DNA of 64,000 nucleotides. It comes from Candidatus Woesebacteria bacterium (GTDB taxonomy: Bacteria; Patescibacteriota; Microgenomatia; UBA1400; UBA1396). Shown in pieces: positions 2,266-42,612 of this stretch (position 1 is the stretch's first letter; each line of letters begins with the position of its first letter). Below the pieces are notes generated by a model. The model was given only the letters and a program-made list of their open reading frames with translations. It made no database searches and was not told the DNA's origin. A program made the translations under genes and the position numbers. Location of the stretch: assembly GCA_021208605.1 (NCBI GenBank), contig JAJOJK010000017.1, positions 17,872-81,871 on the forward strand, in the 5' to 3' direction.

Positions 2266-2310
2266 GCGTCTCCTTTCATAAAGGAGAACGCGCTCACAGG
2301 GTGTGAAGAT

Positions 2311-11163: not shown

Positions 11164-12290
11164 AGTTTCTCCATGAGCGTTGAGAAAAACTCAACTGTTC
11201 GTTGATAATTTTTGATTGGAATTCGTTCTACGTTGCTGTGCCCGGTTTTTCCAAGCCCGCCTCCGAACATTAGTGCTGAGGGCTGATCGTATTGTTGCCA
11301 CATCATTTGTAAATCTAGGTAGCCCGTGTCTTGAGGATCTGACCAAGCCGTTTTATTCGTAGTGGGAACTATCTTTTCTATATCAGTTTTGGGTGTTATC
11401 CAAGCAGAGTAGTCATGTGTGATTTGCATGACTTCGAATTCAATCCTGTTCTTTGATGCAATATCACTCAGTTGCTTTTGTATAAACTGTGCCGTTACTT
11501 TCGGATTAGCCGGCCTGATATCAATCACACATTCACAAATATCTGGAATGATATTTCCGGCTTGGCCAACTTCTGTCAAAAATTCTCTTTGTAACGAGTC
11601 AGCCTTTTTCTGGCCACCAAAAATATAAGCTAAGTTTAAGCTCGTTTTTCCTAACTCAACGCTAGTTTGAGCATCTAAGATTTCCTTGAGAATAGCAACT
11701 AATCTGAATGTAGCATCAATTGCATTTCTTCCGTTCCCTTTGGCAGCGTGTCCAGACTTCCCAAAGACGCGAAGGCGTAACTCAATTAATCCGCGACAAG
11801 CATAGCCAACTTGGAGATCTGATCCATCTGCAGAAATGATTCTTTGTGGTTTTAGATCAGGGTACTCTTTTAAGAAACCCTTCATTCCCAGAAAGTCATA
11901 TTCCTCGTCGGCATACAGAACGATCCAAAAGTTATTAGCCTGAGGATTGTTTCGAGCTGCTAACAGCAAAGCAGCTAAACCAGATTTCATATCTGAGGCA
12001 CCGCGTCCCCAGATTTCACCGCCTTTCTCAATTGCTTGGCGCTGACTGGAGTCACTCGGTGCTACAGTATCCGTGTGTGCAAGAAAGAGAGTATCTGGAT
12101 TGCCTTTTTTGATGATGAGATTATATCGATCATTCCCAAGTGGTTGTTTTTCAATAGTTGCTGTCAACGTGTTTGCTACCCATTCTTCAATGTAATTCAC
12201 TAATTTTGTTTCATTTATACCCTGCTGATCATCAACATAGGAGGGTATTTCTATGAGTTGCTTGAGGAGTTCTATGGCTTCGTTGTTCAT
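11154..12290 (-). CDS. M20 family metallopeptidase (ArgE/DapE-like), paralog 1
   Basis: HTDTV, GRGASDMKSG, ADEEYDF. Overlaps its neighbours, so it is in an operon. Confidence 0.8.
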   Translation of the reverse strand: MNNEAIELLKQLIEIPSYVDDQQGINETKLVNYIEEWVANTLTATIEKQPLGNDRYNLIIKKGNPDTLFLAHTDTVAPSDSSQRQAIEKGGEIWGRGASDMKSGLAALLLAARNNPQANNFWIVLYADEEYDFLGMKGFLKEYPDLKPQRIISADGSDLQVGYACRGLIELRLRVFGKSGHAAKGNGRNAIDATFRLVAILKEILDAQTSVELGKTSLNLAYIFGGQKKADSLQREFLTEVGQAGNIIPDICECVIDIRPANPKVTAQFIQKQLSDIASKNRIEFEVMQITHDYSAWITPKTDIEKIVPTTNKTAWSDPQDTGYLDLQMMWQQYDQPSALMFGGGLGKTGHSNVERIPIKNYQRTVEFFSTLMEKLCK

Positions 12291-17405: not shown

Positions 17406-18134
17406 CTACTCACCTGAAAACTCTTTCGAGTAAAAGATTTTTTCCTCCGAAAAAATAACTACATCTCGACGGCGAAAGGGAATGTGAATTTCTAAAGCAG
17501 CAAAAGTTTCAGACGGAGTGAAGTTCAAGCTCTTACCAGTATTCAAGAAAATTTCCACCCAGGTGTCTTTTTGGACTGCGTCGACAATATGGGCCTTTTC
17601 TTGAGCGAGCGCTTGCATCGCAGTTTCCATTTTTTCCGTCGAGTCTGAGCTCTGAGCCAGTATGTGCCTGGGTTCACTTCCCCAAGTTTGCAGATTCCAG
17701 TGGCCGTAGGAGCTCAGTATACTGCGGTTCTCTAGCTGGATCTGCACAATCGATCCGTACACAATAAACGCATCTACGATACGTTGGGTGTGCAGCAGCG
17801 CTAAATCTTTGGCGGCCTGTTTGGGTGAGATGGAGTGTTTTTGTGTCAGTTGGATGAGCACATGGACTCGGTCAAAACTGTACACTCTTTTTTCGTGACG
17901 TCGCTGAGAGAGTTTTGGGAGTCGATTTTCCAGATAGCTCTCCAGTTTGGCAGGGTAGATTTCTTGCGCCGTGTCAGGATATGAGTACAACTCAAAAGTA
18001 CCTTGTGGAGTTTCAATCCAATGCCGCCATATGCGACGGTGTGCCGGTTCAAAGTACATGACATCTTCGATTGATCCAATATGCCAGTGATCGACAACGC
18101 GTTGAAGAATGGCCGGCGAATAGATACTGTTCAT
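17406..18134 (-). CDS. hypothetical protein
   Basis: Start refined to MNSIYSP, directly after the upstream stop. No known motif. Confidence 0.4.
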   Translation of the reverse strand: MNSIYSPAILQRVVDHWHIGSIEDVMYFEPAHRRIWRHWIETPQGTFELYSYPDTAQEIYPAKLESYLENRLPKLSQRRHEKRVYSFDRVHVLIQLTQKHSISPKQAAKDLALLHTQRIVDAFIVYGSIVQIQLENRSILSSYGHWNLQTWGSEPRHILAQSSDSTEKMETAMQALAQEKAHIVDAVQKDTWVEIFLNTGKSLNFTPSETFAALEIHIPFRRRDVVIFSEEKIFYSKEFSGE

Positions 18135-18352
18135 TCTTCCAACTTCCGAAATCTCGGCACTGTCTGTCCATCCACTTCTACAGATTCCAGAAACATTTCC
18201 AGCGGCCGCACCCACATGCTGGCGGTTTCGTTTTCGTAGAGCGAGACATACACTACCAGATCTTCCAGCGTTTCGCTGTGTTTGGCCACGCCCAAGACTA
18301 AGTACTTTTTGCCTTTGTAGTGTTGGTAGAGGCCGGTGGGGAGATTAGACAT
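18131..18352 (-). CDS. DUF1653 domain protein
   Basis: YQHYKGKKY...VYVSLYE pattern characteristic of DUF1653. Confidence 0.6.
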   Translation of the reverse strand: MSNLPTGLYQHYKGKKYLVLGVAKHSETLEDLVVYVSLYENETASMWVRPLEMFLESVEVDGQTVPRFRKLEE

Positions 18353-19499: not shown

Positions 19500-20126
19500 T
19501 TGTATCGCAAAAAAACATTTTCTGGAAATACAACCGTGACCACCTTCACCCTCATCCGCCATGGCGACAAGCTTTTTTCACCGCTCGATCCGAGTTTGAA
19601 TGAACTCGGCCACGAACAAGCCCGCCGTACGGCCGAGTACTTAGCCGACCAACCAATCCAAAAAATCATTGCCAGTCCTTTGCGTCGAACGCAAGAAACA
19701 GCCCAGTATATTGCCGAAAAACTCAATTTACCGATTCACACCGACGAGCGTCTGCGCGAGCGCATTAACTGGGGAGATCGCCCCAATCAAACACGGGACG
19801 ACTTTGTGCAAACCTGGATTCAAACCAGTCGCGACCGCGACTATGTTCCGCTCGGAGGCCAGTCTTCCCGACAAGCTGGGGAGAGTTTTTTATCCGTAAT
19901 TACAGAGCAGATTGGTGCTCCTGAAGAACATATTGCGCTGGTTTCGCACGGCGGGATCATTAGCGACTTTTTGCGCAATATTTTTACTGAAGAGCAACTT
20001 GCGCCCATGAGTAAGAAATTTCCCAATGGCTTGGACTACGAAATCAAAGAATGTTCTCTCACCCAAATAAAGGTCGATACCGATTTTCAACTGATTTGTA
20101 TCAATGCCGTTGATCATTTGGTGTGA
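19500..20126 (+). CDS. histidine phosphatase family protein, paralog 2
   Basis: LIRHGDK and VSHGG. Paralog of 4298..4903. The true start may be the GTG at 19536. Confidence 0.75.
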   Translation: MYRKKTFSGNTTVTTFTLIRHGDKLFSPLDPSLNELGHEQARRTAEYLADQPIQKIIASPLRRTQETAQYIAEKLNLPIHTDERLRERINWGDRPNQTRDDFVQTWIQTSRDRDYVPLGGQSSRQAGESFLSVITEQIGAPEEHIALVSHGGIISDFLRNIFTEEQLAPMSKKFPNGLDYEIKECSLTQIKVDTDFQLICINAVDHLV

Positions 20127-20578
20127 TGGCCCATGCTACACTACATCTCATGACACCATTCTTTCATACCTCTCGTCAGCGCACGTTGTTTCTCGGCATC
20201 ACTCTGGGCGTATTGTTGCTCGGTTTACTCGTGTGGAAGATTGCTGGAACCCAATCCCTCTGGGAACCAACCGGCACTCCATCAACGGCCAGCCAGGCTG
20301 AAGGCACACCCGTTGACTTGCCTCGTGAATACACCTTTACTGCCTCTGAAGCCATGACAGCAGAGGAACTCCTCAATTCGCAGGCGGAAGTGGAGTACCA
20401 AGACTTTGGCCCAGGCGGAAAATTTGTGCAGTCGATCAATGGTCTGGCGAGTGATGAAATGTATTTCTGGGGGTTTTATGTCAACGACGAATTTGCCCAA
20501 GCTGGGGTAAGTCAGACGCAACTGCAACCAAATGATACGATACGTTTTACCTATGAAAAAATTGAACCACTTCAGTAA
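20123..20578 (+). CDS. DUF4430 domain protein (N-terminal TM anchor)
   Basis: GKFVQSINGL...YFWGFYVNDEFAQAGVSQ...NDTIRFTY matches the DUF4430 pattern. Confidence 0.55.
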   Translation: MMAHATLHLMTPFFHTSRQRTLFLGITLGVLLLGLLVWKIAGTQSLWEPTGTPSTASQAEGTPVDLPREYTFTASEAMTAEELLNSQAEVEYQDFGPGGKFVQSINGLASDEMYFWGFYVNDEFAQAGVSQTQLQPNDTIRFTYEKIEPLQ

Positions 20579-21062
20579 CCAAATTCTCGTCGCAGCTGGC
20601 GTTTTTGTCTGGCGAGCGGCGCGCGTCGCGGCGAACGTTTCTCCACTCGGAAGTTTCGGCTTTTTTGGGAGAGCACCAGTAGCCTACTTTGCAACTATCA
20701 TTGCGTTTGATTGGCTCGTAGGTGGTTTTTATAGTGGTTTTCTCTGGACCTATATCGCCTTTGCCGCGTATCCCATGTTTGGATACTTTGCTCGCGGTAA
20801 TTGGCGTCGCCAAGCAGTGTTGCTTCCTCTGGCTTCATTTGCCTTTTTTGCCATTTCGAATGCCGGAGTCTGGTGGCACTGGTATCCGCACACGTGGTCA
20901 GGATTGCTGACTTGTTATACGCTCGCATTGCCGTTTTATGTTCGGACTTTACTCGGCGATGTAACTTTTGGATATGGGTATTTGTTCTGTCGATGGCTCG
21001 TGCGCCAGAAAACTGGCAGTCATTGCACCAGAGTGTGCCCCTTTTTCGCCAAGCATAACTAA
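20553..21062 (+). CDS. polytopic membrane protein, possibly an ECF-transporter S-component-like protein
   Basis: Five to six hydrophobic helices. Overlaps the DUF4430 gene. Confidence 0.35.
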   Translation: MKKLNHFSNQILVAAGVFVWRAARVAANVSPLGSFGFFGRAPVAYFATIIAFDWLVGGFYSGFLWTYIAFAAYPMFGYFARGNWRRQAVLLPLASFAFFAISNAGVWWHWYPHTWSGLLTCYTLALPFYVRTLLGDVTFGYGYLFCRWLVRQKTGSHCTRVCPFFAKHN

Positions 21063-23253: not shown

Positions 23254-23946
23254 CTACTGGTAGACGCGCTCGGCGAAGACCAGTTTGCGCTGGAGTGTGG
23301 TCCCTGGTGGCCAACAAGTCTGGAGAACAATGGTTTCAGTAGCGTATTCTTGTTGCAAAAAGTAGGTATCTTCCGGGTCAACCTCGACTGATTGTGTCAC
23401 CTGGTACTCAAACCGTTCGCCCTGGTGCCAGATAAATATTTCATCACCTGGTTCCAGTTTTCCTAGCAGGTAAAAAACAGCGTTGAACTGCGAACGAAAC
23501 TCTGGCGCAGAGGAGTGGGCGAAGTAGTAGCCAATTCCACCCGTATCCGGAAATGCAGTACTGGAAGCGTGCGCAATACCTTGGCGTAGAGCGGCGAGAT
23601 ACGATTCCGAGTCATTGGGATTGACGTTATAGATCACCGGCTCGTCCAAATAGATGGCTGGAATGACAATGCCGTTTTCGGTGTTTGTGGCGTTGAAGCC
23701 GCGGATATCAACCGAGATGTTGGGAATGAACAGTGAGCGCAGTGATCCGTCGCCCGTAAATACGGTGCTGAACAGGCGTCGATACTGGTACTTTGCTTCC
23801 ACTGCAACAACTGGACCAAACGTGAGTAAGAGCCACAAGAGTGCGCTGAGGAGTCCAACTGCAGCGATACTCAGCCAGAGAATTGGTGACTGCAACCACT
23901 GTATGCGAGAGTGTTGATAGCGTGCAGCTGGTTTGGCAGGTTTCAT
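23254..23946 (-). CDS. sortase (class E/F-like)
   Basis: N-terminal TM helix, YLLGKLEPGDEIF, and catalytic TLxTC (IVLQTCWPPG). Start refined to MKPAKP. Confidence 0.7.
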   Translation of the reverse strand: MKPAKPAARYQHSRIQWLQSPILWLSIAAVGLLSALLWLLLTFGPVVAVEAKYQYRRLFSTVFTGDGSLRSLFIPNISVDIRGFNATNTENGIVIPAIYLDEPVIYNVNPNDSESYLAALRQGIAHASSTAFPDTGGIGYYFAHSSAPEFRSQFNAVFYLLGKLEPGDEIFIWHQGERFEYQVTQSVEVDPEDTYFLQQEYATETIVLQTCWPPGTTLQRKLVFAERVYQ

Positions 23947-23986
23947 AGGTGGGCAGTACCTTTGTTTTCCGTTTCGGTATTGACGC

Positions 23987-25459
23987 CTAGGCGCGGAGCG
24001 CGCGGTAGCGAAGTAAGCCGACCGTGCCGATGATGCCACTAGTGATACCGAAGATGGTGAGGCCGGTTGGGGTGCCGGTGTCAGGTTGCTTGGTTAGTGG
24101 TTCGGTTTCAATGTACACCGTAGAGGTACACGTACCGTCGCCGCCCTGCCAGTTGCCTTGGGAGTCGCGGATGTAGCCTTTGACGGTGTAGGTGCCTGGC
24201 TGGTTGTACAGCTGTTCAAAGGTTTCGCCATCGGATTCTTTGACCACGCCGTTTCCGAAGTCCAGTTTGTATTTTTGAATGGCACCCTTGTTGTCGTAGC
24301 CAGTTACTTTGAACTGTACTGTGCTGGGCGATTCCTCGCGGTTACCAGACAAGATGAACAAATCGGAACATTTGGATTTATGGCTTTCGATAGAACGAGC
24401 TTTGATCGAGACGGTGCTTTCACAAGCGTTGCTCGAAATCCAGTTGCCTTTGCTGTCTTTGACATCGGCCCGGGCGGTGAAGTTGCCGGAGCTTTCGTAT
24501 GTGTGGCTGAATTCACCGGACTCGTTTTCTTCTTTGGTGCCGTCGCCGTAGTAGACGCGGTAGCGTTGGATGTCACCCAGGTTGTCGGTGCCTTCCACTT
24601 CGAACTTCACTGTGGCCGGAACAGTGCCCAAGTTGCCTTCGCGCAAGATCAAGTCTTGGCAGGAGCTGCGGTGCTCTTCACCGGCTTGCTCACGGCGAAC
24701 GCGGAAGCTGTCGGTGTTGCTACAGGCATCGATCGTGGTCGAGTAGCAGCGGAAGCGATACGAGCCAAAGTCTTTGACTTCATAGTTGCGGAGAACGCTG
24801 GTGTGTTTGGTTTCGGTGCTGTTATCTGGTTTGGTAATTTCGATTTTGGCGCCAGGCAAGAGGTCAGCACCATTTTTGGCAAAACAGTTGACGTCTACTG
24901 TGTCACCGATGGCGATGTTTTTGCTCGACATGTCGTCGCCGCTAATCCAGGTGTTTTCGCCTGATTTGCGGAACTGCGTATTTACTGGTTCGTAGGCGCT
25001 ACAGGTTTGGTCGTTTTCATCGTTGCCTGGGTTAGGACGATCGTTGCTACAGTCGCCGGAGTACCAGACCATGTAGTCGACGAGGTCATTGTCATCACAG
25101 ATCCAGTCGTTACCATCGCGGCATTGCGTATTGAAGACATCGATTTGCACAGTTTTGCCACATCCGACACCGCTCACCGATTGACGCAAGCTGAAATCAG
25201 ATTCGTTACTGCGACACTCGGTCTGGCGACCGTCACAAATGTAACGGACCACGGAAGCTTTGGGATACGAACAGGAGCCATCAAAAGTATTACAGTAACC
25301 GCCACATGTATTGTGTGTAGCCGAAGTGCCGGAGCCACAAAGATTGGTGTATTCGCCATTTCCGTAGGTCATGCGCGCCGAGGCCGTGCTGGCAAATGCG
25401 CCGAGAACAACGAAAGTGGTGATGAGAGCAGTGAAAAATCGAATGAATTTTTGTGTCAT
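23987..25459 (-). CDS. secreted Cys-rich protein with three PKD-like repeats and a C-terminal cell-wall sorting signal (sortase substrate)
   Basis: Signal peptide. Repeats with ...GNFTARADVKDSKGNW, ...GTYTVKGYIRDSQGNW and a third repeat. C-terminal KQPDTGTPTG, then a hydrophobic helix, then RYRALRA. Confidence 0.65.
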   Translation of the reverse strand: MTQKFIRFFTALITTFVVLGAFASTASARMTYGNGEYTNLCGSGTSATHNTCGGYCNTFDGSCSYPKASVVRYICDGRQTECRSNESDFSLRQSVSGVGCGKTVQIDVFNTQCRDGNDWICDDNDLVDYMVWYSGDCSNDRPNPGNDENDQTCSAYEPVNTQFRKSGENTWISGDDMSSKNIAIGDTVDVNCFAKNGADLLPGAKIEITKPDNSTETKHTSVLRNYEVKDFGSYRFRCYSTTIDACSNTDSFRVRREQAGEEHRSSCQDLILREGNLGTVPATVKFEVEGTDNLGDIQRYRVYYGDGTKEENESGEFSHTYESSGNFTARADVKDSKGNWISSNACESTVSIKARSIESHKSKCSDLFILSGNREESPSTVQFKVTGYDNKGAIQKYKLDFGNGVVKESDGETFEQLYNQPGTYTVKGYIRDSQGNWQGGDGTCTSTVYIETEPLTKQPDTGTPTGLTIFGITSGIIGTVGLLRYRALRA

Positions 25460-25617
25460 ACTAATGGTGATTATAGGAGAGGCTTTCCTCCCTGGCAAGC
25501 GCTATCCGATAGTATCATTCATGAGGTGGTAACGGAAAAGTAAGTGGTTTCATATCCGTGAAATGTTACCTATACTATGAACTCCGTAATCAAATGAAAG
25601 AAGAAAGAGGAAAGCGC

Positions 25618-26136
25618 ATGTCAGAAGACATCACTCCCCCCAACCAATCAGGAAATAAGACGATGGGATTTGTTATCCTGGGCGTTTTAGCGGTAGCTGC
25701 TATTGGCGTTTTGGCGTATGACCAGCTCAAGCCAGCTGCATCGACCGAGATGGAGCAAGTAGAAACAGTAGAGGCTAACCAACCGAGTACCGCTGAGCAG
25801 AACATGGGTGCTGATGCTCCCGAAATGGCAGCAGATTCGAAGTATCAAGATGGAGAATACACCGTGATGGGTGAGTATACTTCTCCAGGTGGCCCAGAAG
25901 AGATCGAAGTAACTGTGCAATTAGAGAATGGTGTGATTGTAGATTCAGAAGTAGTGCCACAGGCAACAGCCCCGATTTCTGTCAAAATGCAAAATGATTT
26001 TGAGTCAGGATACGAGGAACAAGTAATTGGAAAGTCTCTTGATGAGGTTCAAGTTTCGAAAGTAGCGGGTTCATCCTTAACTCCGAAGGGCTTCAACGAT
26101 GCGCTTGAGAAGATTAAACAAGAAGCACGTGCCTAA
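25618..26136 (+). CDS. FMN-binding domain lipoprotein-like protein
   Basis: SD AAGAGGAAAG before MSEDIT. One TM helix. The FMN_bind pattern YQDGEYTV...KVAGSSLTPKGFNDAL includes a candidate flavinylation Thr. Confidence 0.65.
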   Translation: MSEDITPPNQSGNKTMGFVILGVLAVAAIGVLAYDQLKPAASTEMEQVETVEANQPSTAEQNMGADAPEMAADSKYQDGEYTVMGEYTSPGGPEEIEVTVQLENGVIVDSEVVPQATAPISVKMQNDFESGYEEQVIGKSLDEVQVSKVAGSSLTPKGFNDALEKIKQEARA

Positions 26137-26141
26137 TCGGC

Positions 26142-27080
26142 ATGGCTTCGCTTCTTGGTCGGCAATTCTCATTTGAAGCGATTGGCACGCAGTGGACGCT
26201 TGATATTTGGACAAACACAGAAGAATCGGCGCTACAAGAGCTTTTGCAGTCGGTGCATCAGCGTATCGAGCAATTCGATCAACGGTATTCCCGTTTTCGC
26301 GCTGATTCTTGGGTGAGTGAAGTCGCCGCAGCAGCCGGAAGCTATGCTTTGCCTGTCGATGCCGAGCCTTTGTTGCACGTGTATGACGAGTTGTTTCGTT
26401 TGAGTGACGGCAGTATTACGCCGCTCATTGGCGGTTTACTGGAACAGGCCGGCTATGATGCCGAGTATTCTTTAGCTGAAAAGAGCGGGTTTGCGGAACA
26501 GATTGCTCCCAAATGGCAACAAGCTGTGACCTATGCTGACGGACAGTTACAGGTTTCCGAACCGGTGGTGCTGGACTTTGGCGCTGCCGGAAAAGGATAT
26601 CTGGTTGATCAAATTTCTGAACTGCTCGAAGCCGCCGGAATCACGCAGTACTGTGTTGATGCCAGCGGTGACATGCGGTATCGCCATCCGCGGCAGGTGC
26701 CGTTGCGAGTGGGATTAGAAAACCCGTTTGCGCAGCAGCAAGTTATTGGAGTGGTGGAGCTCACTGAAGGCAGTTTGTGTGCTTCGTCTGGTAATCGGCG
26801 CCGGTGGGGGACTCATCACCATATTATGGATGCGCAGACCAAGCGATCTCCGGAAGATATTGCCGCAACATGGGTAGTTGCCCCGCGAGCCCTCGAGGCC
26901 GATGCTTTGGCTACCGCGCTCTATTTAGTTTCTCCAGACATTCTCGAACAGGCATTTTCTTTTGAGTATCTTATTTTGTACGATGGGTACAGAGTGCAGC
27001 GGAGCGATGATTTTCCGGTTGAGCTGTTTACTGCCTCATCGCGTCCGCACGAAACGCAGAAAGGGGAGATTCCTGCATGA
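26142..27080 (+). CDS. apbE: FAD:protein FMN transferase (ApbE family)
   Basis: FGAAGKGYLVDQ and DASGDMRY are ApbE hallmarks. Confidence 0.8.
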   Translation: MASLLGRQFSFEAIGTQWTLDIWTNTEESALQELLQSVHQRIEQFDQRYSRFRADSWVSEVAAAAGSYALPVDAEPLLHVYDELFRLSDGSITPLIGGLLEQAGYDAEYSLAEKSGFAEQIAPKWQQAVTYADGQLQVSEPVVLDFGAAGKGYLVDQISELLEAAGITQYCVDASGDMRYRHPRQVPLRVGLENPFAQQQVIGVVELTEGSLCASSGNRRRWGTHHHIMDAQTKRSPEDIAATWVVAPRALEADALATALYLVSPDILEQAFSFEYLILYDGYRVQRSDDFPVELFTASSRPHETQKGEIPA

Positions 27081-28606
27081 TTGCTCCATGGCGAAAAATT
27101 GATGAATTTCTGAATGAGTACACCATGTATCGGGTGGTGCTGTATGCCTTGGTAGTCTTGGCCGGTATTGCGTTCTTTTTTAGTGCGGTTGGGATTCTCG
27201 ATTATTCATTTGTTTCGTTGTTGTCGAGTATTGTGCTTTTGGGTGTGAGTTGTGTGAGTGTGAATCGAGTGGCAGCTTGGGCTCTGAGTGTCCCCACAAA
27301 TGTGGAGTCGGCAGCTATTACTTCGCTGATTCTGTTTTTTGTGGTGACGCCACCGCAAAACTTCTCAGAAGGCATGGTTTTAGTTGGTGTGGGAGCGATC
27401 AGTATGCTCAGCAAATACTTGCTAGCTTGGCAGAAAAAACACGTCTTTAATCCGGTCGCAATAGCCTTGGTGATCGCGGGCATTTTAGGATTGCCCATTG
27501 CCAGTTGGTGGGTAGCAACGCCCGTATTAGCTCCATTCACCCTGATTTTGGGAATTCTCGTTGTGCGGAAAATTCGACGATTTGGCATGGTGGGAGCTTT
27601 TATCCTGGCGGCCAGTATGGGAATTTTGGGCTTAGGACTCTGGCGCGGAGCGAATCTCACCGATTTGGTATATGAACTCTACGCATCGTGGCCGATTGCT
27701 TTCTTTGCCACATTTATGCTGACTGAACCACTGACCACGCCGCCAACTTGGCAGTATCGGGTGGCCTACGGCGTTTTGGTGGGCGCGATTTTTGGTTCCC
27801 AACTGGGCTGGTGGCGGTTGTATGCCTCGCCTGAGTTGGCCTTGATAATGGGAAATATATTTTCGTTTGCGGTGAGTCCGAAGTATCGTTTGCTGTTGCG
27901 GTTGGTGGAAAAACGGCAGTTGGCGCGTCAGACCTTTGAGTTTGTATTTCAGTCGAGTCGGAAGATGCGTTTTCAGCCTGGGCAGTACATGGAGTGGACG
28001 TTTGCGCATGATGCACCAGATGACCGCGGCAATCGCCGTTACTTTACGATTGCTTCGTCGCCGACGGAAGAAGAAATTTTGCTTGGAGTCCGTATTCCAG
28101 AGCAGGCGAGTTCCTATAAGCGCGAACTGGCTGCTATGCAGCCGGGTGAAGAGATTGTGGCCGGTCAGTTAGCCGGCGATTTCACTTTGCCCGCTGATGA
28201 GACTCAACCGCTGGTGTTTATTGCGGGCGGGATTGGTATTACGCCGTTTCGCAGCATGATTCAGTATTTGGTCGACACGAAGCAGAAACGTGCGGTGACA
28301 TTGTTTTACGTTAACAAAATCGTTGACGATATTGCGTATAAAGACCTCTTTGATGCTGCCAAGAAAAAACTGCCTGGTTTTTCTGTGGTGTATGTGCTCA
28401 CCGATGAATCGCAGGTGCCGAAAAAATGGTCAGGCGAAACAGGATACATTACTGGTGAAATGCTCCAACGGCATTTGGAAGATATCACGCGACCGCTGTA
28501 TTACTTATCGGGACCGAACGCAATGGTCGACGCCTACAAAGACGTTTTGCGTGTAAATGGCGTCAACGAGGCGGCGATTAAGACGGATTATTTCCCGGGA
28601 TTTTGA
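27077..28606 (+). CDS. fusion protein: NqrB/RnfD-like polytopic membrane domain plus an FNR-like FAD/NAD(P)-binding oxidoreductase domain
   Basis: The N-terminal approximately 300 aa have multiple TM helices (HVFNPVAIAL). The C-terminus carries RRYFTIASSP (RxYS FAD motif) and GGIGITPF (NAD motif). Translationally coupled to apbE. Confidence 0.6.
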   Translation: MIAPWRKIDEFLNEYTMYRVVLYALVVLAGIAFFFSAVGILDYSFVSLLSSIVLLGVSCVSVNRVAAWALSVPTNVESAAITSLILFFVVTPPQNFSEGMVLVGVGAISMLSKYLLAWQKKHVFNPVAIALVIAGILGLPIASWWVATPVLAPFTLILGILVVRKIRRFGMVGAFILAASMGILGLGLWRGANLTDLVYELYASWPIAFFATFMLTEPLTTPPTWQYRVAYGVLVGAIFGSQLGWWRLYASPELALIMGNIFSFAVSPKYRLLLRLVEKRQLARQTFEFVFQSSRKMRFQPGQYMEWTFAHDAPDDRGNRRYFTIASSPTEEEILLGVRIPEQASSYKRELAAMQPGEEIVAGQLAGDFTLPADETQPLVFIAGGIGITPFRSMIQYLVDTKQKRAVTLFYVNKIVDDIAYKDLFDAAKKKLPGFSVVYVLTDESQVPKKWSGETGYITGEMLQRHLEDITRPLYYLSGPNAMVDAYKDVLRVNGVNEAAIKTDYFPGF

Positions 28607-28640
28607 AGCATTAAAAAAGCAGCCAAAGCTGCTTTTCTTG

Positions 28641-28715
28641 TGGCTGCCGGACTAGGACTCGAACCTAGAATAACGGCTCCAAAGGCCGCTGTGATGCCAT
28701 TTCACCATCCGGCAA
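28641..28715 (-). tRNA. tRNA-Gln (UUG)
   Basis: Hand-folded cloverleaf: acceptor UGCCGGA/UCCGGCA, T-arm CUAGG-UUCGAGU-CCUAG, anticodon loop CUUUGGA, CCA encoded. Confidence 0.75.
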
Positions 28716-28840
28716 AGACGAACGAAGCATCATTATACCAGACCGATACGGTTTTCTGGGAAGCATTTCATGCAAATTTCCTCAAGCAAAGTCTCTCCGC
28801 AGACCGGGGAAGGAATGATACAATACAGTTCTCCAGCCGT

Positions 28841-28913
28841 GCCGACGTAGCTCAGTGGTAGAGCGGCGGTATCGTAAACCGTAGGTCGTGGGTTCGAATC
28901 CCACCGTCGGCTC
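28841..28913 (+). tRNA. tRNA-Thr (CGU)
   Basis: Acceptor GCCGACG/CGUCGGC, D-arm GCUC-AGUGGUA-GAGC, anticodon loop AUCGUAA, T-arm GUGGG-UUCGAAU-CCCAC. Confidence 0.8.
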
Positions 28914-28916
28914 ACA

Positions 28917-28945
28917 AAAAAGACGCTTTCGGCGTCTTTTTTTGT
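28917..28945. terminator. bidirectional intrinsic terminator
   Basis: AAAAAAGACGCUUUCGGCGUCUUUUUUU is a perfect hairpin with A and U runs on both sides. Confidence 0.8.
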
Positions 28946-29128
28946 GAGGCTATGTTGGTAGCAGAGAAGCCAATTGGGTTCCGACGCCCAGGGAGTCCTT
29001 TGAGCGAAGCGAAACGGCGACCAGGCTAGTACCCGGAGGGTGCGACGGGGTGAGCATATCAAATATAATGAATGCGAAACCATGACCAGACAGTATCCAG
29101 TGTGGTGCCAAGGTGGGTCTATTAAAGC

Positions 29129-31129
29129 TTAATGAGAAGTAGAATTTGCCGTGTCTTTCTTCCAAGCCAATGTCTCTACTAAACGGCGTTCAAACTCTTG
29201 GAAGAGGCGGGAGTAGTTGCGTTCAATAATTTGCATCTGGAAGCTGTTTTTGAGACGGAACTGCTCGTGTTCAGTTTTGACACTGTCGATAATACGCAAC
29301 GCTTGTTTGTCGTTATCGAGGAGGTCAGCTACGTGTTCGAGGTAAAGAATTGCTTCACTACTGGCTACAATACGAGCCTGTAGAAGTGATAAACGGCTCA
29401 TAATTAAGTTTTTCTGGTTGCCAATTAACCAGCTTTGAATAAAAGGCAGTGGGAAGTTTTGAATAGATTCGCGAAGGCGAGCGAGACGTCCGAGGAACGT
29501 TTCTTGGCTATCAACTCGGCCACCAGCACGGTATCCACGTCCAGCGTAGAGTTCTGGGTACTCAAGCGCGTCTTGCTGAAGGTCGAGTTCTGTTTTGAAG
29601 GTGTTCAAAACGTTGGCGGAGATGTGTTCATGCTCAAAGAGGCGATTGATCGTTTTTCGCTCGATTTCCAGTACTTCCAAACGCAAACTTTTTTCCAGCT
29701 CGCGTGGAGTGGCGAGTTCCGCAAGGCGTTTTTGGTGTTTTCGTTCCCGTTCGGAGAGAGTGCGTTGCACATCTTTCAAAACCACTCGAGAGAATTCGTT
29801 GTCAGAGAGTTGTTCTAAGCGATGCTTTGCTTCTTGAATAGTGAAGATATTCGTTTCTTCTTGAATAATCTCTTCTTCCCGTTTCGGCAGGTGGAGGCCA
29901 AGCTTCATGAGGAGTTTGCGGATCGTGGTGGCATTTACCAGCATAGTGAAAAGGAAGGTAGCCAAGGTGTAAGCAATAAATTCTTCGCGCAACACAAAAT
30001 CTTGTGGCAGTGAGTACACCAAAACTAAAGGAATTACTCCCCGTAAACCACCCCAGTTCAAAACGTGTTGCCACTTAAGGAACACATTTGGCTCATTTTT
30101 GAAGAAAGGAATAGTGTTCGTTAAGAAGAAGGTGACATACGTAGAAACCGCGCGGCTAATGAGTACCGCCAGAATGACAAGCATGACACTGTATGGTTGC
30201 GCGATAATTCCGGCGAGGTCCAAATCCAGACCAGCAAAGAAGAACACCAGCGAAACCGAAATAAAACCAATGTATTCCCAGAGTTCTTCCATGAAAGAAA
30301 TAACTGGCGAGGAAATATTGGTGCGACCAATATTACCCATGGTGAGACCAGCCGCGACAGTGGCAATTACGCCAGAAAGTCCGAAGAAGTGCTCCGCCGC
30401 GACGAAGGTAATGAGTGCCAGGGCAATTGTCATGGTGGTTTCGACCAGACGATCATTCTTGATGTTTGAGATAAAGAGCGAAGTCGCGTACGCAGCCACA
30501 AAGCCAAAGCCCATACTGCCAATAAAGACATAGGTAAAGTCAAGCAAGCTGTAGGCCAAGTCGACTGTGGCAAACAGTTGGTCTGCCACCACAAAGCCAC
30601 TAATCAGACGGAACAAAATAACAGCCGTAGCGTCGTTAAACATACTTTCGCCTTCGGCAAGGAGACCGAGTCGTTTTGGTGCACCCAATTCCTTAAAGAG
30701 CGCGAGCACCGCGATAGGATCGGTTGCGGATATGAGGGCACCAAAGAGTAAACCGTGCAGTGGGTCCATGCCCAGGAATTGAGAAAGCAAGAAGGCCACT
30801 GTTCCCGTGGCAAGTAACACGCCAAAAGTGGCTAAGAAGGTAATCGTCTTAAACTGCAGTTGGAACTGGTGAAAGTTAATGTGAAACGCAGATTCATATA
30901 GCAACAGCGGAAGCAAAACGAAGTAGATAAGGTCGGATTCCAAGCTGAGCGGGTTGTGGAGTCCAGCTGCCTCGAGTAAATATTGACCGATAAAGCCACA
31001 CACTAAGAGTGCAACGGTGTACGGCACGTTACTGCGACGAACGAAAGACTGCAGGGCAGCCGTGATAGCCAAAAAGAGGCCAGTAAACAATACACCAATA
31101 ATCAATGCTTCCGCATGCATGTTCTGCAT
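29129..31129 (-). CDS. CPA1-family Na+/H+ antiporter (NhaP-type) with a long C-terminal cytoplasmic regulatory domain
   Basis: Twelve or more TM helices with Na_H_Exchanger pattern, and a 230-aa coiled C-terminus. Confidence 0.75.
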   Translation of the reverse strand: MQNMHAEALIIGVLFTGLFLAITAALQSFVRRSNVPYTVALLVCGFIGQYLLEAAGLHNPLSLESDLIYFVLLPLLLYESAFHINFHQFQLQFKTITFLATFGVLLATGTVAFLLSQFLGMDPLHGLLFGALISATDPIAVLALFKELGAPKRLGLLAEGESMFNDATAVILFRLISGFVVADQLFATVDLAYSLLDFTYVFIGSMGFGFVAAYATSLFISNIKNDRLVETTMTIALALITFVAAEHFFGLSGVIATVAAGLTMGNIGRTNISSPVISFMEELWEYIGFISVSLVFFFAGLDLDLAGIIAQPYSVMLVILAVLISRAVSTYVTFFLTNTIPFFKNEPNVFLKWQHVLNWGGLRGVIPLVLVYSLPQDFVLREEFIAYTLATFLFTMLVNATTIRKLLMKLGLHLPKREEEIIQEETNIFTIQEAKHRLEQLSDNEFSRVVLKDVQRTLSERERKHQKRLAELATPRELEKSLRLEVLEIERKTINRLFEHEHISANVLNTFKTELDLQQDALEYPELYAGRGYRAGGRVDSQETFLGRLARLRESIQNFPLPFIQSWLIGNQKNLIMSRLSLLQARIVASSEAILYLEHVADLLDNDKQALRIIDSVKTEHEQFRLKNSFQMQIIERNYSRLFQEFERRLVETLAWKKDTANSTSH

Positions 31130-31167
31130 TTTACCGCTTGGTCAGGGAAAACGGAAGAAGATTTTTT

Positions 31168-31215
31168 TCAATGCCAAAAAGCCGCGGTTGCTCGGCAGCC
31201 GCGGCTTAAGTTGGA
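31168..31215 (-). terminator. intrinsic terminator after the LysM gene
   Basis: Minus-strand AAGCCGCGG-loop-CCGCGGCTT followed by TTTTTGG..AAAAAAA. Confidence 0.5.
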
Positions 31216-31225
31216 GTCTCACTAT

Positions 31226-31783
31226 TTACTCTTGAGTGTTTACTGGAGTGGTCATCCCACCCTTAGTTTGGACAGGCTGATCAGGATTTTGCTCCTGCAT
31301 TTCTTGCACTGTTTCGGTCATCGCGCTACGAGGAACACCAGCTTCTTCTTGTGTTCGCACTGAAACTTTTGGAATAGTCAATTGCATCCCTGGAGTCAGT
31401 TCTTGATCTGGGTTGAGGCTGTTTTCCGTTTCGATATCGACGTAGTTAAATCCAGAACCGTAGAAAGCTTCGGCGATAGCCCAGGTAGAGTCGCCTTCCC
31501 GAACGGTGTAGCGTGCTGGAAGGTTTGTGGGCACTTCGCGTCCGGTTTCATCTGTCTCTGTCATAACCTCGGTGGGGAGTTCCGTGACCTCAACCACGTT
31601 TTGTTGCTGCTCTTCTGTTGGTGTTTCTTCAGCGGCCTGACGGTTTTGCCGCCAGTTACGGATGTATGAAAACGCCAAAGCACCAATAACTACGACCACC
31701 ATGGCGCCAAGAATCATGCTAATTACGGACTCGCTGTCGGTGGGGACAGTAACTTTAGGTTTGGCATTCTGTGTATTGGCCAT
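31226..31783 (-). CDS. LysM domain protein, membrane-anchored, acidic
   Basis: One TM helix and a C-terminal LysM (YTVREGDSTWAIAEAFYG...LTPGMQLTIP). Confidence 0.7.
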   Translation of the reverse strand: MANTQNAKPKVTVPTDSESVISMILGAMVVVVIGALAFSYIRNWRQNRQAAEETPTEEQQQNVVEVTELPTEVMTETDETGREVPTNLPARYTVREGDSTWAIAEAFYGSGFNYVDIETENSLNPDQELTPGMQLTIPKVSVRTQEEAGVPRSAMTETVQEMQEQNPDQPVQTKGGMTTPVNTQE

Positions 31784-31947
31784 TTTCCTCCCTACTTGTA
31801 GGCTCTATTTCTCTTTTCGGAGTTTTGTGGACACTATGCCACTGGCTCCATCTTTTTCGCAAAGATTATAAGTTACCGTATACGATTTTTCGGGGAGTGG
31901 CAAGAGGGAAAGAGCTTCTTTGTGGTAGAGAGTTCGCTTTATAAGTA

Positions 31948-32504
31948 TTAGCGGCGAGAAAAATAGCGAAAAAGAGCGTCGGCAAGTTCATCTATTGATG
32001 ATGAGTGATGCAAAGTATCGAGGCTCTCGTTGGCTTTCGTCGTGGCTCGAATAAGTTCAGCAGTATATAAGATGTCATTCGGTTTTTCCGGATGCCACGT
32101 CAGCGATACCTGAAGTGCAGTAGTGGGCCGAGCAAGTCGTCCCAGTGCTAATTCTGCAGTCAGAGTAATGTTCTGTATCTCCACGCGTTCTCCCCAAAGA
32201 ATAATCTGCACTTGGGCAGATGTAGTCAATCGATCAGAAAAACCATTTTTTTCATCCTCCAAGAGGGGTGATAATTCATGTATCCGGAAAAGCAGATGAT
32301 AGATAAAGTTGTTGAATTCTCCGTGTATCTTCTGATATTCAGTTTTTTTTGAATTGCTTTAAGGACATCAGAAGTAATATTTGGTACTGCGGTTGCTGAT
32401 TCGTGATACGGAGCAACTTCGGAATGGAGCATCGTTCCGCGGAGTTCGATTGTGGGGAGCATAGTTTCTTGTCCGTAGTATAAGGAAAGGAGTGGTTGTG
32501 TCAA
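31948..32504 (-). CDS. hypothetical protein(s): two overlapping ORFs (92 aa and 104 aa) in different frames; possibly one frameshifted gene
   Basis: 32226..32504 and 31948..32262 overlap by 37 nt. No recognisable motif. Confidence 0.25.
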
Positions 32505-32589
32505 AGTTATTTCTGTGTTTCTTGCCTGAACGTAAAAGCTCCTTCTTTTTTTGCCTCGCCATGATACAATAACTTTCTCATCTCGCTAT

Positions 32590-32666
32590 GGTCGCGTGGT
32601 GTAGCTGGTTAACATACCTCTCTGTCACAGAGGAGACCGCCGGTTCGAGTCCGGTCGCGACCGCCA
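32590..32666 (+). tRNA. tRNA-Asp (GUC)
   Basis: Acceptor GGUCGCG/CGCGACC, anticodon loop CUGUCAC, T-loop UUCGAGU, CCA encoded. Preceded by a TGaTACAAT extended -10. Confidence 0.8.
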
Positions 32667-32718: not shown

Positions 32719-33804
32719 ATGTTTACAGAAAATCCACAATCGACAAATTTAAAAGATCGAGAGTCTGTGAATACGCCACGTGCTTTGGAAGTTTTTTCTC
32801 AACTTCTCTTACGTTATAATACTCTTTCAGATCAACAGCAGCAGGTCATAGATGGAATTATTACTCAACTTGATTTTTTGCAAAGAACCATTCTTGGCAA
32901 ACAAAGTGAGCCTGAAGAGTCCGCGGAGCAAATAGAAATTCGCAGTGAAGAAAAAGAGACTTTATCAGCAGGTATAGATCCGGATGAAGTGTATGCTCAA
33001 ATGAGAGATTTTGAAGTTATCGCAACTCAAGAGCAGAGAAGAAAACTCAGTAGAATGTTCTTTAATTTAGGGTATTGGTCGCATATCAGGTATGGCGCCA
33101 GCAGTTCTCATGATATTATTCAAGATTTAGAAGAAATATCGGATGATAGCCCAGAAATAAATAGACAAAAGCAATTAATATTGCAATACATTCAAGACTA
33201 TATTAATGCTGTCAAAAATGAGGCTGATTTACCTTCGATTGATTATGAAATGCTTGAAAATGGTGGAGTAGAGATTCTTCATGATCTCTCTGAGGAAAGC
33301 AGAGAAAAAGTAATGAAAGTATTAGAAGATATAAACGAGCTTACGGCACATCTTTTTCAGGTAGATAACGTAAATTTTACAGTGAGGGGAAATAATTTAA
33401 TTCAAACACCCGGGGTATATGATCTTTCGTTCAGACCATCTAGTGCCTTTAAAAGTGCATTTCCAAATGATTATGATGATCAAGCTGATGTTATTGAAAG
33501 AAGAAACTTGAATAAATCTCTTACTATTGTTTTGGATGGTTCTACCGCTCATTTGAATGGACATAATATTGGTGTTGACTTTTATGATCGTCCCACCAGT
33601 TTTGGTATTAAAATTATTTTTAAGGACTCCGATTCTGCAAAACGGTTTCTTCAGGTAATCAACGAGGTTAAAGTAGCTGATAGAAATAGCTTTTTAATGA
33701 CTTTGCTTGAAGGAGCTGTTAAACGTTGTAATCAAGATATATATGATTTAGGTATGTATTTTTCCAAACAACTAATTCGCGAAGTGATTGTAGAAGTAAT
33801 TTAG
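32719..33804 (+). CDS. hypothetical protein (AT-rich ORFan next to tRNA-Asp)
   Basis: 361 aa with about 33% GC versus about 48% nearby. No known motif. Confidence 0.45.
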   Translation: MFTENPQSTNLKDRESVNTPRALEVFSQLLLRYNTLSDQQQQVIDGIITQLDFLQRTILGKQSEPEESAEQIEIRSEEKETLSAGIDPDEVYAQMRDFEVIATQEQRRKLSRMFFNLGYWSHIRYGASSSHDIIQDLEEISDDSPEINRQKQLILQYIQDYINAVKNEADLPSIDYEMLENGGVEILHDLSEESREKVMKVLEDINELTAHLFQVDNVNFTVRGNNLIQTPGVYDLSFRPSSAFKSAFPNDYDDQADVIERRNLNKSLTIVLDGSTAHLNGHNIGVDFYDRPTSFGIKIIFKDSDSAKRFLQVINEVKVADRNSFLMTLLEGAVKRCNQDIYDLGMYFSKQLIREVIVEVI

Positions 33805-41190: not shown

Positions 41191-42612
41191 ATGTCTACGA
41201 ATGAATACACGCCAATTATTGGTCTCGAAATCCACGTTGAGATGCGCACCAATTCCAAAATGTTTTGTGGCTGTCCGGCCGAACACTTTGGTGCCGAACC
41301 AAACTCGCACACTTGTCCAGTATGTTTAGGCTTGCCAGGCGCTTTGCCGGTGGCCAACGGAGAGGCGATCAAGCGAACGGTCAAAATTGGTTTAGCTTTG
41401 GGATGTTCGATTGCGGAAGAAAGTAAATTTGACCGCAAGAACTATTTCTATCCGGATTTGCCGAAGGGCTATCAGATTTCGCAGTACGATCAGCCACTGT
41501 GTTATGAGGGTTTGGTCCATACTGATTCTGGTGACGTGCGCATTACGCGCGTTCACTTGGAAGAAGACACCGCCAAACTGCAGCACGTAACGCTCACTCC
41601 GGACCAAATGAAGGCGGCTAATGTGGAACACGCCGATGTTTCCTTGCTGGATTTTAATCGCTCGGGTGTGCCGCTGGTAGAAATTGTGACGGAGCCAGAT
41701 ATTAAAACCGGTGCGCAGGCGCGTGAGTTTGGAAAACTGTTGGTCCAAACCTTGCGCTATCTCGGCGTTTCTGACTGTGACATGGAGAAGGGTTCGTTGC
41801 GATTAGAGGCGAATATTTCGGTGCAGTCCGAAGAGGAAAAAGCTGCTGGCAAGCTGCCGAACTACAAAGTCGAAGTGAAGAACCTGAACTCTTTCCGATT
41901 TTTGGAGCGGGCCATCGATTTCGAGATTGAACGCCACACGGCCATGCGTCGAGCTGGAGAAACGCCAACGCAAGAAACCCGGGGCTGGAACGATGACCGC
42001 AGTGTGACCTTTAGTCAGCGCAGCAAAGAGGAGGCTGAAGATTATCGGTATTTCCCGGACCCAGATTTGCCACCACTGTATTTGTCGCAAGAACTCGTGA
42101 CCGAGATTGGCGAGAGTTTGCCCGAACTGCCGCAGGCTGCTTATATTCGTTTGCAGAGCGGATATGGTTTGAGCGCCCAGAATGCTGAAGTCTTTACTGC
42201 CGAGCGGGAAGTTTTGTTGGCTGGAGAGCAGTTGCTCCAAGCCGCCCAAAAATCGGAACTCGAGCCGCAAACGGTGGCGAATGACGTAGTGAATAAAAAG
42301 GTTGAGACGTGGATTTTGGATGCAGAACGTGTCAGTTCTGCTCCGCCAGAAGAAGTTGCTGCTGAAGTCAAAAAAGTGCTCCAGACGATTGCAAAAGCGC
42401 GGCAAACTGAATCTATTCCTGCAGAAGAGGTTCATGCTATCATGGATGAAATAGCCTCAACTGCCGATGGAAAAGATGCTATCGAAAAGTACCGATCCGG
42501 AAAGGTGCAAGTAATTGGCTTCCTGATGGGTCAGTTAATGCGCAAGCTCCAGAAGAAGGTCGATGCAGGTGAGGTGAAGCAAGTGCTCGAAAACTACCTG
42601 CAAAATGACTAA
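41191..42612 (+). CDS. gatB: Asp/Glu-tRNA amidotransferase subunit B
   Basis: GLEIHVE...CPVCLGLPGALPV and a C-terminal GatB/YqeY domain. Confidence 0.9.
   Translation: MSTNEYTPIIGLEIHVEMRTNSKMFCGCPAEHFGAEPNSHTCPVCLGLPGALPVANGEAIKRTVKIGLALGCSIAEESKFDRKNYFYPDLPKGYQISQYDQPLCYEGLVHTDSGDVRITRVHLEEDTAKLQHVTLTPDQMKAANVEHADVSLLDFNRSGVPLVEIVTEPDIKTGAQAREFGKLLVQTLRYLGVSDCDMEKGSLRLEANISVQSEEEKAAGKLPNYKVEVKNLNSFRFLERAIDFEIERHTAMRRAGETPTQETRGWNDDRSVTFSQRSKEEAEDYRYFPDPDLPPLYLSQELVTEIGESLPELPQAAYIRLQSGYGLSAQNAEVFTAEREVLLAGEQLLQAAQKSELEPQTVANDVVNKKVETWILDAERVSSAPPEEVAAEVKKVLQTIAKARQTESIPAEEVHAIMDEIASTADGKDAIEKYRSGKVQVIGFLMGQLMRKLQKKVDAGEVKQVLENYLQND

Follow-up and report, generated by a model that had tools for sequence, protein, structure and literature searches.

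A probable NQR/RNF-like flavinylation module of a divergent subtype, with a leaderless ApbE, in Candidatus Woesebacteria

A 64,000-nucleotide stretch of DNA from a Candidatus Woesebacteria bacterium (assembly GCA_021208605.1, contig JAJOJK010000017.1, positions 17,872 to 81,871; hereafter the window) carries three adjoining genes, A, B and C. They are predicted to encode, respectively, an anchored relative of the FMN_bind family of flavin mononucleotide (FMN)-carrying proteins, an ApbE-family flavin adenine dinucleotide (FAD):protein FMN transferase, and an NqrB/RnfD-like membrane domain fused to an FNR-type NAD(P)H reductase. The locus is read here, at a probability of about 0.65, as a complete NQR/RNF-like flavinylation-associated module of divergent subtype II, passing electrons from NAD(P)H to the outward-facing FMN of protein A with flavins as its only cofactors. 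The analysis shows which genes are present and in what order, what their domains and folds are, that the flavinylated loop of RnfD has been lost, that an acceptor hydroxyl is conserved in protein A, that the family of protein A bears export signals, and that the ApbE is devoid of a leader. The class was already published from bioinformatic work in 2021, and the locus adds a member from a divergent, poorly annotated branch; the leaderless ApbE is the sole feature with potential for something new.

NQR/RNF-like systems were described by Méheust et al. 2021 (eLife, PMC8238504) as flavinylation clusters in which an NqrB/RnfD membrane domain is fused to PF00175, and 127 such clusters were reported, mainly from Actinobacteria and the Candidate Phyla Radiation (CPR). 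The class definition places the fusion within five genes of an ApbE and/or an FMN_bind gene. In the window, apbE overlaps the start codon of the fusion gene, the FMN_bind-like gene lies immediately upstream, and PF00175 is found on the same polypeptide as the membrane domain. Taken literally, the PF03116 match demanded by the definition is missing from this copy, and its homology to NqrB/RnfD comes instead from family profiles and fold. A preliminary description of the window, prepared from the DNA letters alone, had placed a three-gene flavinylation module at 25618-28606, and three plus-strand open reading frames (ORFs) do lie there. It had also called the fusion unusual, which no longer holds, since the fusion is that of the published class and at least 439 species-representative genomes were confirmed as carriers.

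The NqrB/RnfD-like nature of the membrane half of protein C, as first proposed, is borne out by family profiles and fold comparison (TM-score 0.69 to RnfD). Full-length homologs of protein C run to thousands, with about 505 aa and 46-65% identity. A 19-sequence family profile of the membrane domain matches only RnfD in the PDB (E 1.3e-3), comparison with Escherichia coli RsxD in hhalign gives an E value of 2e-5, and 17 of the 19 homologs, the window copy not being one of them, match PF03116 individually (best 1.1e-10). An AlphaFold2 model of full-length protein C was of high confidence (pLDDT 91.7, pTM 0.85), and a fold search with it returned FNR-type matches only. The N-terminal domain was then modelled separately (pLDDT 93.4), and its top 15 PDB fold matches were RnfD (TM-scores 0.68-0.69) and NqrB (0.55-0.61), with urea transporters next. 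The domain also carries a TEPLTTPP motif whose T216, E217, P218, T220 and P222 do not vary among 55 sequences, and which aligns with LTDPVTAS of RsxD and TDPVTSP of 8ahx_D. Profiles and modelled fold thus assign the membrane half to the NqrB/RnfD family.

In E. coli RsxD, the sequence D-G-I-S-Q-A-T187 lies in a long loop between the FNPA helix and the GWQWV helix. In a global alignment with RsxD, residues ~142-221, which hold this sequence, have no counterpart in protein C or its family; the covalent FMN site (NqrB Thr236 / RnfD Thr187) is therefore absent, and a short outward loop stands in its place. The flavinylation Thr of NqrB/RnfD was likewise found to lack conservation within the NQR/RNF-like family by Huang et al. 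2024 (PMC10979944). Because this loop is deleted, the membrane domain is judged from its sequence not to be a second ApbE acceptor, a role that the preliminary description had given it. A cryptic flavinylation site elsewhere in protein C was considered among its invariant hydroxyl residues (Thr16, Ser78, Thr220/221 and Ser263/267) and dropped, as none is surrounded by G-[AS]-[ST], and RsxD shares the residues to which Thr16 and the threonines of TEPLT align.

The C-terminal half of protein C is identified as an FNR-type reductase by both sequence and modelled fold. NAD_binding_1 (PF00175) is matched with an E value of 4.1e-22 over aa 381-488, and FAD_binding_6 scores 15.8 bits, under its cutoff of 21.1 bits. 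The GGIGITP motif noticed at the outset is exact, whereas the supposed RxYS motif actually reads R-Y-F-T; the domain closes with a C-terminal DYFPGF. The best sequence matches are reductases of the T4moF, NqrF and BenC type. Foldseek superposes the domain on the flavohemoglobin reductase domain and on Fre with TM-scores of 0.85-0.87 (target-normalised), and the FAD/NAD domain of NqrF is also among the fold matches. The linker preceding it, KYRLLLRLVEKRQLAR, reads as rich in positive charge. Since this linker and other Lys/Arg-rich loops (such as RKIRRF) lie across the membrane from the loop matching the periplasmic Thr187 loop of RnfD, the reductase is predicted to be cytoplasmic, in keeping with the topology first suggested.

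The partners of the fusion at the position of protein A fall into two subtypes, I (52 loci) and II (21 loci, taking in the window and the actinobacterial loci). The acceptor motif is D-x-x-S-G-A-T in subtype I and x-x-x-[AS]-G-S-S-L-T in subtype II; the accompanying ApbE is ~247 aa long in the former and ~285-325 aa in the latter; and the N-terminus of A is a signal-peptide-like MKK plus hydrophobic segment in subtype I, as against a longer polar region followed by a strong transmembrane helix or lipobox in subtype II. When an alignment of the subtype-II proteins (n = 21) is compared in hhalign with the subtype-I partners, the two match along the entire domain (104 columns) at 97.8% probability (E 7e-13) and their acceptor columns coincide; the one subtype-I partner that was checked, that of locus L002, carries PF04205. 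A weak match to the PDB FMN-binding domain 8p2a was also obtained. These sequence comparisons indicate that protein A is a divergent member of the FMN_bind family, homologous to bona fide FMN_bind partners. Profile comparison of protein A with E. coli RsxG revealed no significant or specific similarity, so that the term RnfG-like is valid for it at the level of the FMN_bind family only.

Protein A has one transmembrane anchor, followed by an acidic stalk rich in Pro, Thr and Ala. The charge bias flanking its own anchor is weak. At the same position, however, orthologs carry lipoboxes (VTGC, LAGC) or MKK-type signal peptides; the lipobox-bearing ones are from Agreia, Pseudolysinimonas and Herbiconiux, plus locus L026 (loci L072, L081-L083, L026). 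These lipoboxes, together with the signal-peptide-like N-termini of subtype I, support an extracytoplasmic FMN_bind domain, as did the initial proposal, which is upheld by the anchor in this copy and by the actinobacterial lipoboxes.

A literal [S/T]GA[S/T] flavinylation motif, expected from the first reading of the DNA, was not found in protein A, and the aligned site is A-G-S-S, within S147-K-V-A-G-S-S153. The predicted acceptor is Ser153 (codon 26074-26076), 19 residues before the C-terminus. Across the A family the acceptor column holds a hydroxyl residue in 74/74 sequences (Thr in 46, Ser in 28), the Gly of the motif preceding it is kept in 73/74, and Ser153 is invariant in 21/21 subtype-II sequences. 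A review of ApbE enzymes gives the flavinylation motif as D-x-x-[S/T]-G-A-[S/T], and reports that a D to A change has a minor effect, that G to A and A to V changes leave ~50% flavinylation, and that Ser can be used as acceptor. Given these mild mutant effects and the use of Ser acceptors, the variant motif is a plausible flavin acceptor, and protein A is predicted to be both the ApbE acceptor and an outward-facing flavoprotein.

Subtype-II partners share the pattern Y-K-D-G-x-Y ... S-P-G-G ... [AS]-G-S-S-L-T (for example L001, L004, L072 and L083), and only 2/21 of them reach roughly the Pfam FMN_bind threshold (E ≤ 3e-4). It is likely that subtype-II flavinylation acceptors have been under-counted in genome surveys. 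As these partners mostly fall below threshold and this copy of protein C lacks PF03116, Pfam-based pipelines would miss the window locus. That flavinylation systems are reportedly scarce in CPR bacteria may in part be due to a sizeable branch that Pfam does not see.

Protein B is clearly an ApbE-family FAD:protein FMN transferase by sequence. It matches ApbE (PF02424) with 143.4 bits (E 1.2e-41; cutoff 25.6 bits), and keeps the GKGY, SSG..R and H-H-I-x-D motifs. From its residues 11-13 on, it aligns with crystallised ApbE chains from their residues 15-22 on, and begins where they begin. No hydrophobic segment, signal peptide or membrane anchor was found in protein B, and its ORF allows no upstream extension. 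E. coli ApbE, taken as a control, has a lead of 17 residues that contains the lipobox FFVGC. The hydrophobic start MGMPVxVxV of the short subtype-I ApbEs was considered as a signal peptide and rejected, as it aligns to the start of the ApbE profile, not ahead of it, and contains acidic residues. Absence of a leader had escaped the preliminary description, whose expected Pfam families were recovered in part: direct searches returned ApbE and NAD_binding_1, whereas FMN_bind and FAD_binding_6 stayed below threshold and NQR2_RnfD_RnfE was not matched in this copy.

The survey of gene order and neighbours covered 83 loci as well as the window. Some ~65 of the 83, spread over several phyla, have A, B and C in that order on one strand. 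Carriers of the fusion, among the matches listed, include many CPR lineages, Chloroflexota (Ktedonobacteria), Alphaproteobacteria (Mesorhizobium, Kaistia), Actinomycetota (Agreia, Herbiconiux) and Spirochaetota. No NqrA/D/E/F or RnfA/B/C/E subunit was detected in the window's ~60 sizeable ORFs or among the conserved neighbours in the 83 loci.

Table 1. Features of the locus and its surroundings (window coordinates)
Feature	Position	Strand	Description
Gene A	25618-26136	+	172 aa, membrane-anchored, predicted divergent FMN_bind (NqrC/RnfG-like) protein
Transmembrane anchor of A (aa 17-34)	25666..25719	+	GFVILGVLAVAAIGVLAY; single hydropathy peak, KD19 = 2.48
Variant flavinylation motif of A (S147-K-V-A-G-S-S153)	26056..26076	+	Aligns with D-x-x-S-G-A-T of subtype-I partners
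Gene B	26142-27080	+	312 aa, ApbE-family FAD:protein FMN transferase
Gene C	27077-28606	+	509 aa, predicted fusion of NqrB/RnfD-like membrane domain and FNR-type NAD(P)H reductase
Polytopic membrane domain of C (aa 1-268)	27077..27880	+	~10 helices; predicted NqrB/RnfD fold
Short outward loop LGLPIASWW of C (aa 137-145)	27485..27511	+	Stands where the ~79-residue flavinylated-Thr loop of RnfD/NqrB would be
TEPLTTPP motif of C (aa 216-223)	27722..27745	+	Corresponds to the TDPVT signature of RnfD and NqrB
FNR-type FAD/NAD(P)H reductase domain of C (aa 269-509)	27881..28603	+	Assigned from NAD_binding_1 and fold
R321-Y-F-T324 (R-x-F-T) of C, within RRYFT	28034-28048	+	Version of the R-x-Y-S motif
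GGIGITP of C (aa 384-390)	28226-28246	+	Exact
Sigma-70-like promoter match	25549..25576	+	Weak, tentative; 9/12 hexamer positions; upstream of gene A
tRNA-Gln(ttg)	28641-28714	-	Directly downstream of operon
tRNA-Thr(cgt)	28841-28913	+	Directly downstream of operon
Sortase	23254-24039	-	Divergently transcribed from module
PKD-domain surface protein	23987-25498	-	503 aa; divergently transcribed; overlaps sortase gene

The three genes are tightly packed (Table 1). The stop of gene A is separated from the start of gene B by 5 nt, and the start of gene C shares 4 nt (ATGA) with the end of gene B, which makes translational coupling plausible. The longest ORF of gene A opens at GTG 25558; the start chosen here is ATG 25618, which is preceded by the Shine-Dalgarno-like AGAGGAAAG, and the same 172-aa product is called in a public record (GCA_021208925.1). 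The position of the tentative promoter match hints at ATG 25618 rather than GTG 25558 as the start. The start of gene C is preceded by AAGGGGAG. Promoter and terminator scans around the operon gave site numbers no higher than in shuffled sequence, and a search for riboswitches and structured RNAs in the same region returned two tRNAs and nothing else. Spurious ORFs overlie both tRNA genes.

From these assignments we infer the cofactor content, the direction of electron flow, and the physiological acceptor and role of the module as follows. NAD(P)H would give up its electrons to the FNR-type domain of protein C in the cytoplasm, where FAD would be bound non-covalently. The electrons would then be taken across the membrane by flavin within the NqrB/RnfD-fold domain, which has lost its own covalent-FMN loop; judging from what is known of NQR structures, this would be the FMN/riboflavin leg of NqrB/RnfD run in reverse. 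They would arrive at an FMN attached covalently to Ser153 of protein A, tethered at the outer face of the membrane and installed there by ApbE (protein B), and could pass onward to an extracellular or envelope acceptor. Contact between proteins A and C is suggested by analogy with the subtype-I complex of Ktedonobacter racemifer, which was modelled in AlphaFold-multimer by Huang et al. 2024 (PMC10979944). Pfam scans of the ~60 sizeable ORFs of the 64-kb window revealed no NQR/RNF partner, respiratory, quinone-synthesis or flavin-transport family, and the other genes of the window are CPR housekeeping genes. CPR/Patescibacteria are regarded as fermentative symbionts that have no respiratory chain, and how they dispose of reducing equivalents, as well as their surface redox chemistry, is poorly understood. 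With no respiratory chain in view in such a cell, the module would most simply serve to reoxidise NAD(P)H, as an outward sink or reductase. The locus provides a CPR example, from Woesebacteria, of a compact flavin-only candidate for moving NAD(P)H electrons outside the cell, of a kind that is widespread in CPR.

Several observations weigh against this reading. Protein A scores 19 bits against FMN_bind (PF04205), under the Pfam cutoff of 22 bits, and its motif keeps only the Gly and the acceptor hydroxyl, so that D-x-x-[ST]-G-A-[ST] is broken at three defined positions. The N-terminal ~270 aa of protein C alone yield no PDB sequence match, and its first 274 aa do not match any Pfam family either, even at E ≤ 10. 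No terminal reductase or acceptor gene is conserved beside the module among the 83 loci, and no experimental characterisation of any class member was found in the searchable literature. In the public assembly of this organism, GCA_021208925.1, single Gs are lost at positions equivalent to window 26803 (apbE) and 27763 (fusion gene). Finally, the ApbEs encoded beside the fusion are leaderless in 72/72 cases, even at maximal ORF extension, which sits awkwardly with an exported acceptor.

The last of these points may also be the most informative. According to the ApbE review, enzymes that serve exported targets are normally secreted lipoproteins, the leaderless ApbE of Klebsiella pneumoniae modifies a cytoplasmic fumarate reductase, and a 7-residue tag at a protein terminus can be modified by ApbE. 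The searchable text of Méheust et al. 2021 (PMC8238504) and of Huang et al. 2024 (PMC10979944) holds no comment on leaderless ApbEs. No second ApbE is encoded within the window. Among possible resolutions, FMN might be put on the near-C-terminal motif of protein A in the cytoplasm, before export; a second, secreted ApbE might be encoded outside the 64 kb; or the leaderless enzyme might have another role, such as flavin supply to the membrane domain. As a tentative generalisation, against which the odds still lie, dedicated cytoplasmic ApbEs of NQR/RNF-like systems may as a rule flavinylate the acceptor from cytosolic FAD before or during Sec export, or else play a non-canonical part, for instance by furnishing the membrane domain with its non-covalent flavin(s). 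If so, extracytoplasmic flavoproteins would be made by a new biogenesis route, genome-reduced CPR cells would need no FAD export, and subtype II, with its [AS]-G-S-S acceptor and longer ApbE, would represent a co-evolved enzyme-substrate pair missed by standard annotation. A leaderless ApbE paired with an exported acceptor is in any case a consistent and testable anomaly, bearing on the site and manner of extracytoplasmic flavoprotein assembly.

Of the alternatives to an outward flavin conduit with a general role, the one that survives best, while still rather unlikely, is a specific envelope or metal reductase, induced by envelope signals and acting on one defined substrate outside the cytoplasm, be it ferric iron (for uptake), some other metal or an envelope component in oxidised form. 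Across phyla, the commonest true neighbours in the 83 loci, a histidine kinase at 22 of them and an OmpR-type response regulator at 16, hint at signal-dependent regulation and would suit a signal-switched envelope reductase, as would the MacB/MFP-type ABC genes that rank with them, a P-type ATPase family in five loci, and a small secreted protein, read as PepSY-like from its sequence, in seven alphaproteobacterial loci. Iron transporters of the VIT1 family, present in 6 clusters of Méheust et al. 2021 (PMC8238504), also speak for this alternative. However, the kinase and regulator lie beside the module at other loci among L004-L083 (e.g. L045, L050, L073), and neither they nor any of the other neighbours just named adjoin the module in the window; moreover, no single partner recurs in most loci, and the window itself gives no hint of a substrate.

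A minimal ion-motive pump, in which NAD(P)H oxidation would be coupled to Na+ or H+ translocation as in NQR and RNF, is improbable. The NqrB/RnfD fold is shared with those complexes, and a Na+/H+ exchanger gene lies just downstream of the module on the opposite strand. True pumps, however, rely on NqrD/E or RnfA/E subunits and a semicircular electron path, both of which are absent here, and synteny of the exchanger extends to a single close relative (L001).

An arrangement in which the FMN_bind domain of protein A faces inward, and the complex acts as an inward-facing membrane NAD(P)H oxidoreductase with all of its flavin chemistry in the cytoplasm, is slightly less probable again. It would account for the 72/72 leaderless ApbEs, in line with the K. 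pneumoniae enzyme and its cytoplasmic fumarate reductase, and for the weak charge bias around the anchor of protein A. Against it stand the orthologs of protein A with lipoboxes or MKK-type signal peptides, and the flavin pocket of the membrane subunit, which matches the FMN site of NqrB/RnfD, assumed to be on the outer face. That ApbE flavinylates both protein A and the membrane domain of protein C, as NqrB and RnfD are flavinylated in the canonical complexes, is very improbable, given that the RnfD Thr187 loop (D-G-I-S-Q-A-T) is deleted in C and its family, that the Thr is not conserved according to Huang et al. 2024, and that no [ST]-G-[AS]-[ST]-like loop motif with a conserved hydroxyl was found on reading the sequence of C.

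The remaining alternative arises from the public assembly. Contig JAJOJC010000021.1 of GCA_021208925.1 (L085) is 99.87% identical to window 23747-32600, and with one G fewer in each gene its apbE is not called and its fusion gene is split into products of 255 and 285 aa. That the module is a decaying relic, with both genes frameshifted in the organism itself, is the least probable reading of all, as the window frames are intact and collinear with the family, the apbE indel adjoins a G-run and that of the fusion gene falls in a short G-rich stretch, family-invariant residues continue past both sites, and other indels between the two sequences also lie in homopolymers. From the same evidence, an assembly error in the public record appears the simpler explanation. 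Further differences between the window and this contig occur at 28856-28934 and 32343; they comprise one indel in a T-run and a cluster of differences in and just past the tRNA-Thr gene.

Upstream of the outward-facing module favoured here, the sortase and surface substrate pointed out in the preliminary description do exist, but on the opposite strand, transcribed divergently, and syntenic only in one relative. A functional link of the sortase, PKD, SIMPL and Na+/H+ exchanger genes to the module was considered and rejected, as their synteny extends only to L001, a relative of 65% identity; it is therefore a matter of lineage. The PKD protein ends in ...KQPDTGTP, a hydrophobic stretch and RYRALRA, which resembles a non-canonical sortase sorting signal (xPDTG). 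A set of genes for an HlyD-like membrane fusion protein (MFP), an ATP-binding cassette (ABC) ATPase and a MacB/FtsX permease lies on the plus strand at 52173-55157, 24 kb from the module. In L001 the MFP/ABC/MacB set directly follows the fusion gene (8608-11776), and related ABC/MFP genes lie near the module in 10-20 other loci.

Elsewhere in the window, overlapping plus-strand genes for a secreted-looking DUF4430 protein (151 aa) and a DUF6580 membrane protein (176 aa) occur a few kb upstream of the module (20123-21062). A 434-aa fusion of a ParB N-terminal domain to an N6/N4 DNA methylase (993-2297, minus strand) adjoins a region of lower GC content (4-10 kb, ~0.37-0.39). ORFs without a Pfam match are found on the plus strand at 42605-45217 (870 aa) and 32719-33804 (361 aa), and on the minus strand at 2525-3433 (302 aa) and 17406-18215 (269 aa); the 361-aa ORF lies in a stretch of low GC content (~0.39 vs ~0.49 nearby).

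Among known systems, the module is closest to the published NQR/RNF-like class, with which it has in common the defining fusion, the ApbE and FMN_bind neighbours, the loss of the NqrB/RnfD site, and a home in CPR and Actinobacteria. It differs in belonging to divergent subtype II, with an [AS]-G-S-S rather than an S-G-A-T acceptor and a longer ApbE, and it would fail the published Pfam-based operational definition.

The locus does not resemble that of Listeria-type extracellular electron transfer, with which a comparison was first suggested. Common to both would be an ApbE-family enzyme and a surface FMN_bind flavoprotein as outward outlet in a monoderm cell; respiratory, quinone-biosynthesis and flavin-transport families did not appear in the Pfam scans of the window's sizeable ORFs. 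No family suggestive of Ndh2, EetA/B, quinone synthesis or energy-coupling-factor-type flavin export was seen in these Pfam scans of the sizeable ORFs, which were not targeted at each Listeria protein. In contrast to the Listeria pathway (FmnB, PplA, Ndh2, EetA/B, DmkA/B, FmnA/RibU), electrons would enter through an FNR/RnfD-like fusion and not from the quinone pool. The module's ApbE also lacks a lipoprotein signal, whereas FmnB acts outside the cytosol, according to PMC9973259. In this respect protein B is more like the cytoplasmic ApbE of K. pneumoniae, likewise leaderless and encoded in a genome with FMN_bind-type acceptors; the acceptor there, however, is a cytoplasmic soluble fumarate reductase, whereas the only motif-bearing acceptor in the window belongs to a family with export signals.

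With Na+-NQR and RNF, the membrane domain of protein C shares the RnfD/NqrB fold and the FNPA and T[DE]P[VL]T motifs; its reductase half resembles the FAD/NAD domain of NqrF, the acceptor is FMN_bind-like as are NqrC and RnfG, and an ApbE is encoded alongside. In contrast to these complexes, the module has no NqrA/D/E, RnfA/B/C/E, 2Fe-2S ferredoxin domain or covalent-FMN loop, its NqrB-like and NqrF-like parts are on one chain, its ApbE has no lipoprotein signal, and its electron flow is presumably one-way and outward rather than semicircular. In NADPH oxidases (NOX), SpNOX and ferric reductases, too, electrons are sent outward by a membrane domain to which an NAD(P)H-FAD domain is fused on the cytoplasmic side, and SpNOX is among the full-length fold matches of protein C through its dehydrogenase domain, at weak TM-scores of 0.37-0.39 (query-normalised), as would fit a match confined to the FNR half. 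NOX-type enzymes have a six-helix di-haem ferric-reductase membrane domain, to which that of protein C is unrelated, being of the RnfD/NqrB fold and presumably flavin-binding. In outline, then, the module would be a stripped-down NQR/RNF by ancestry that works like a NOX or ferric reductase, with flavins in place of haems.

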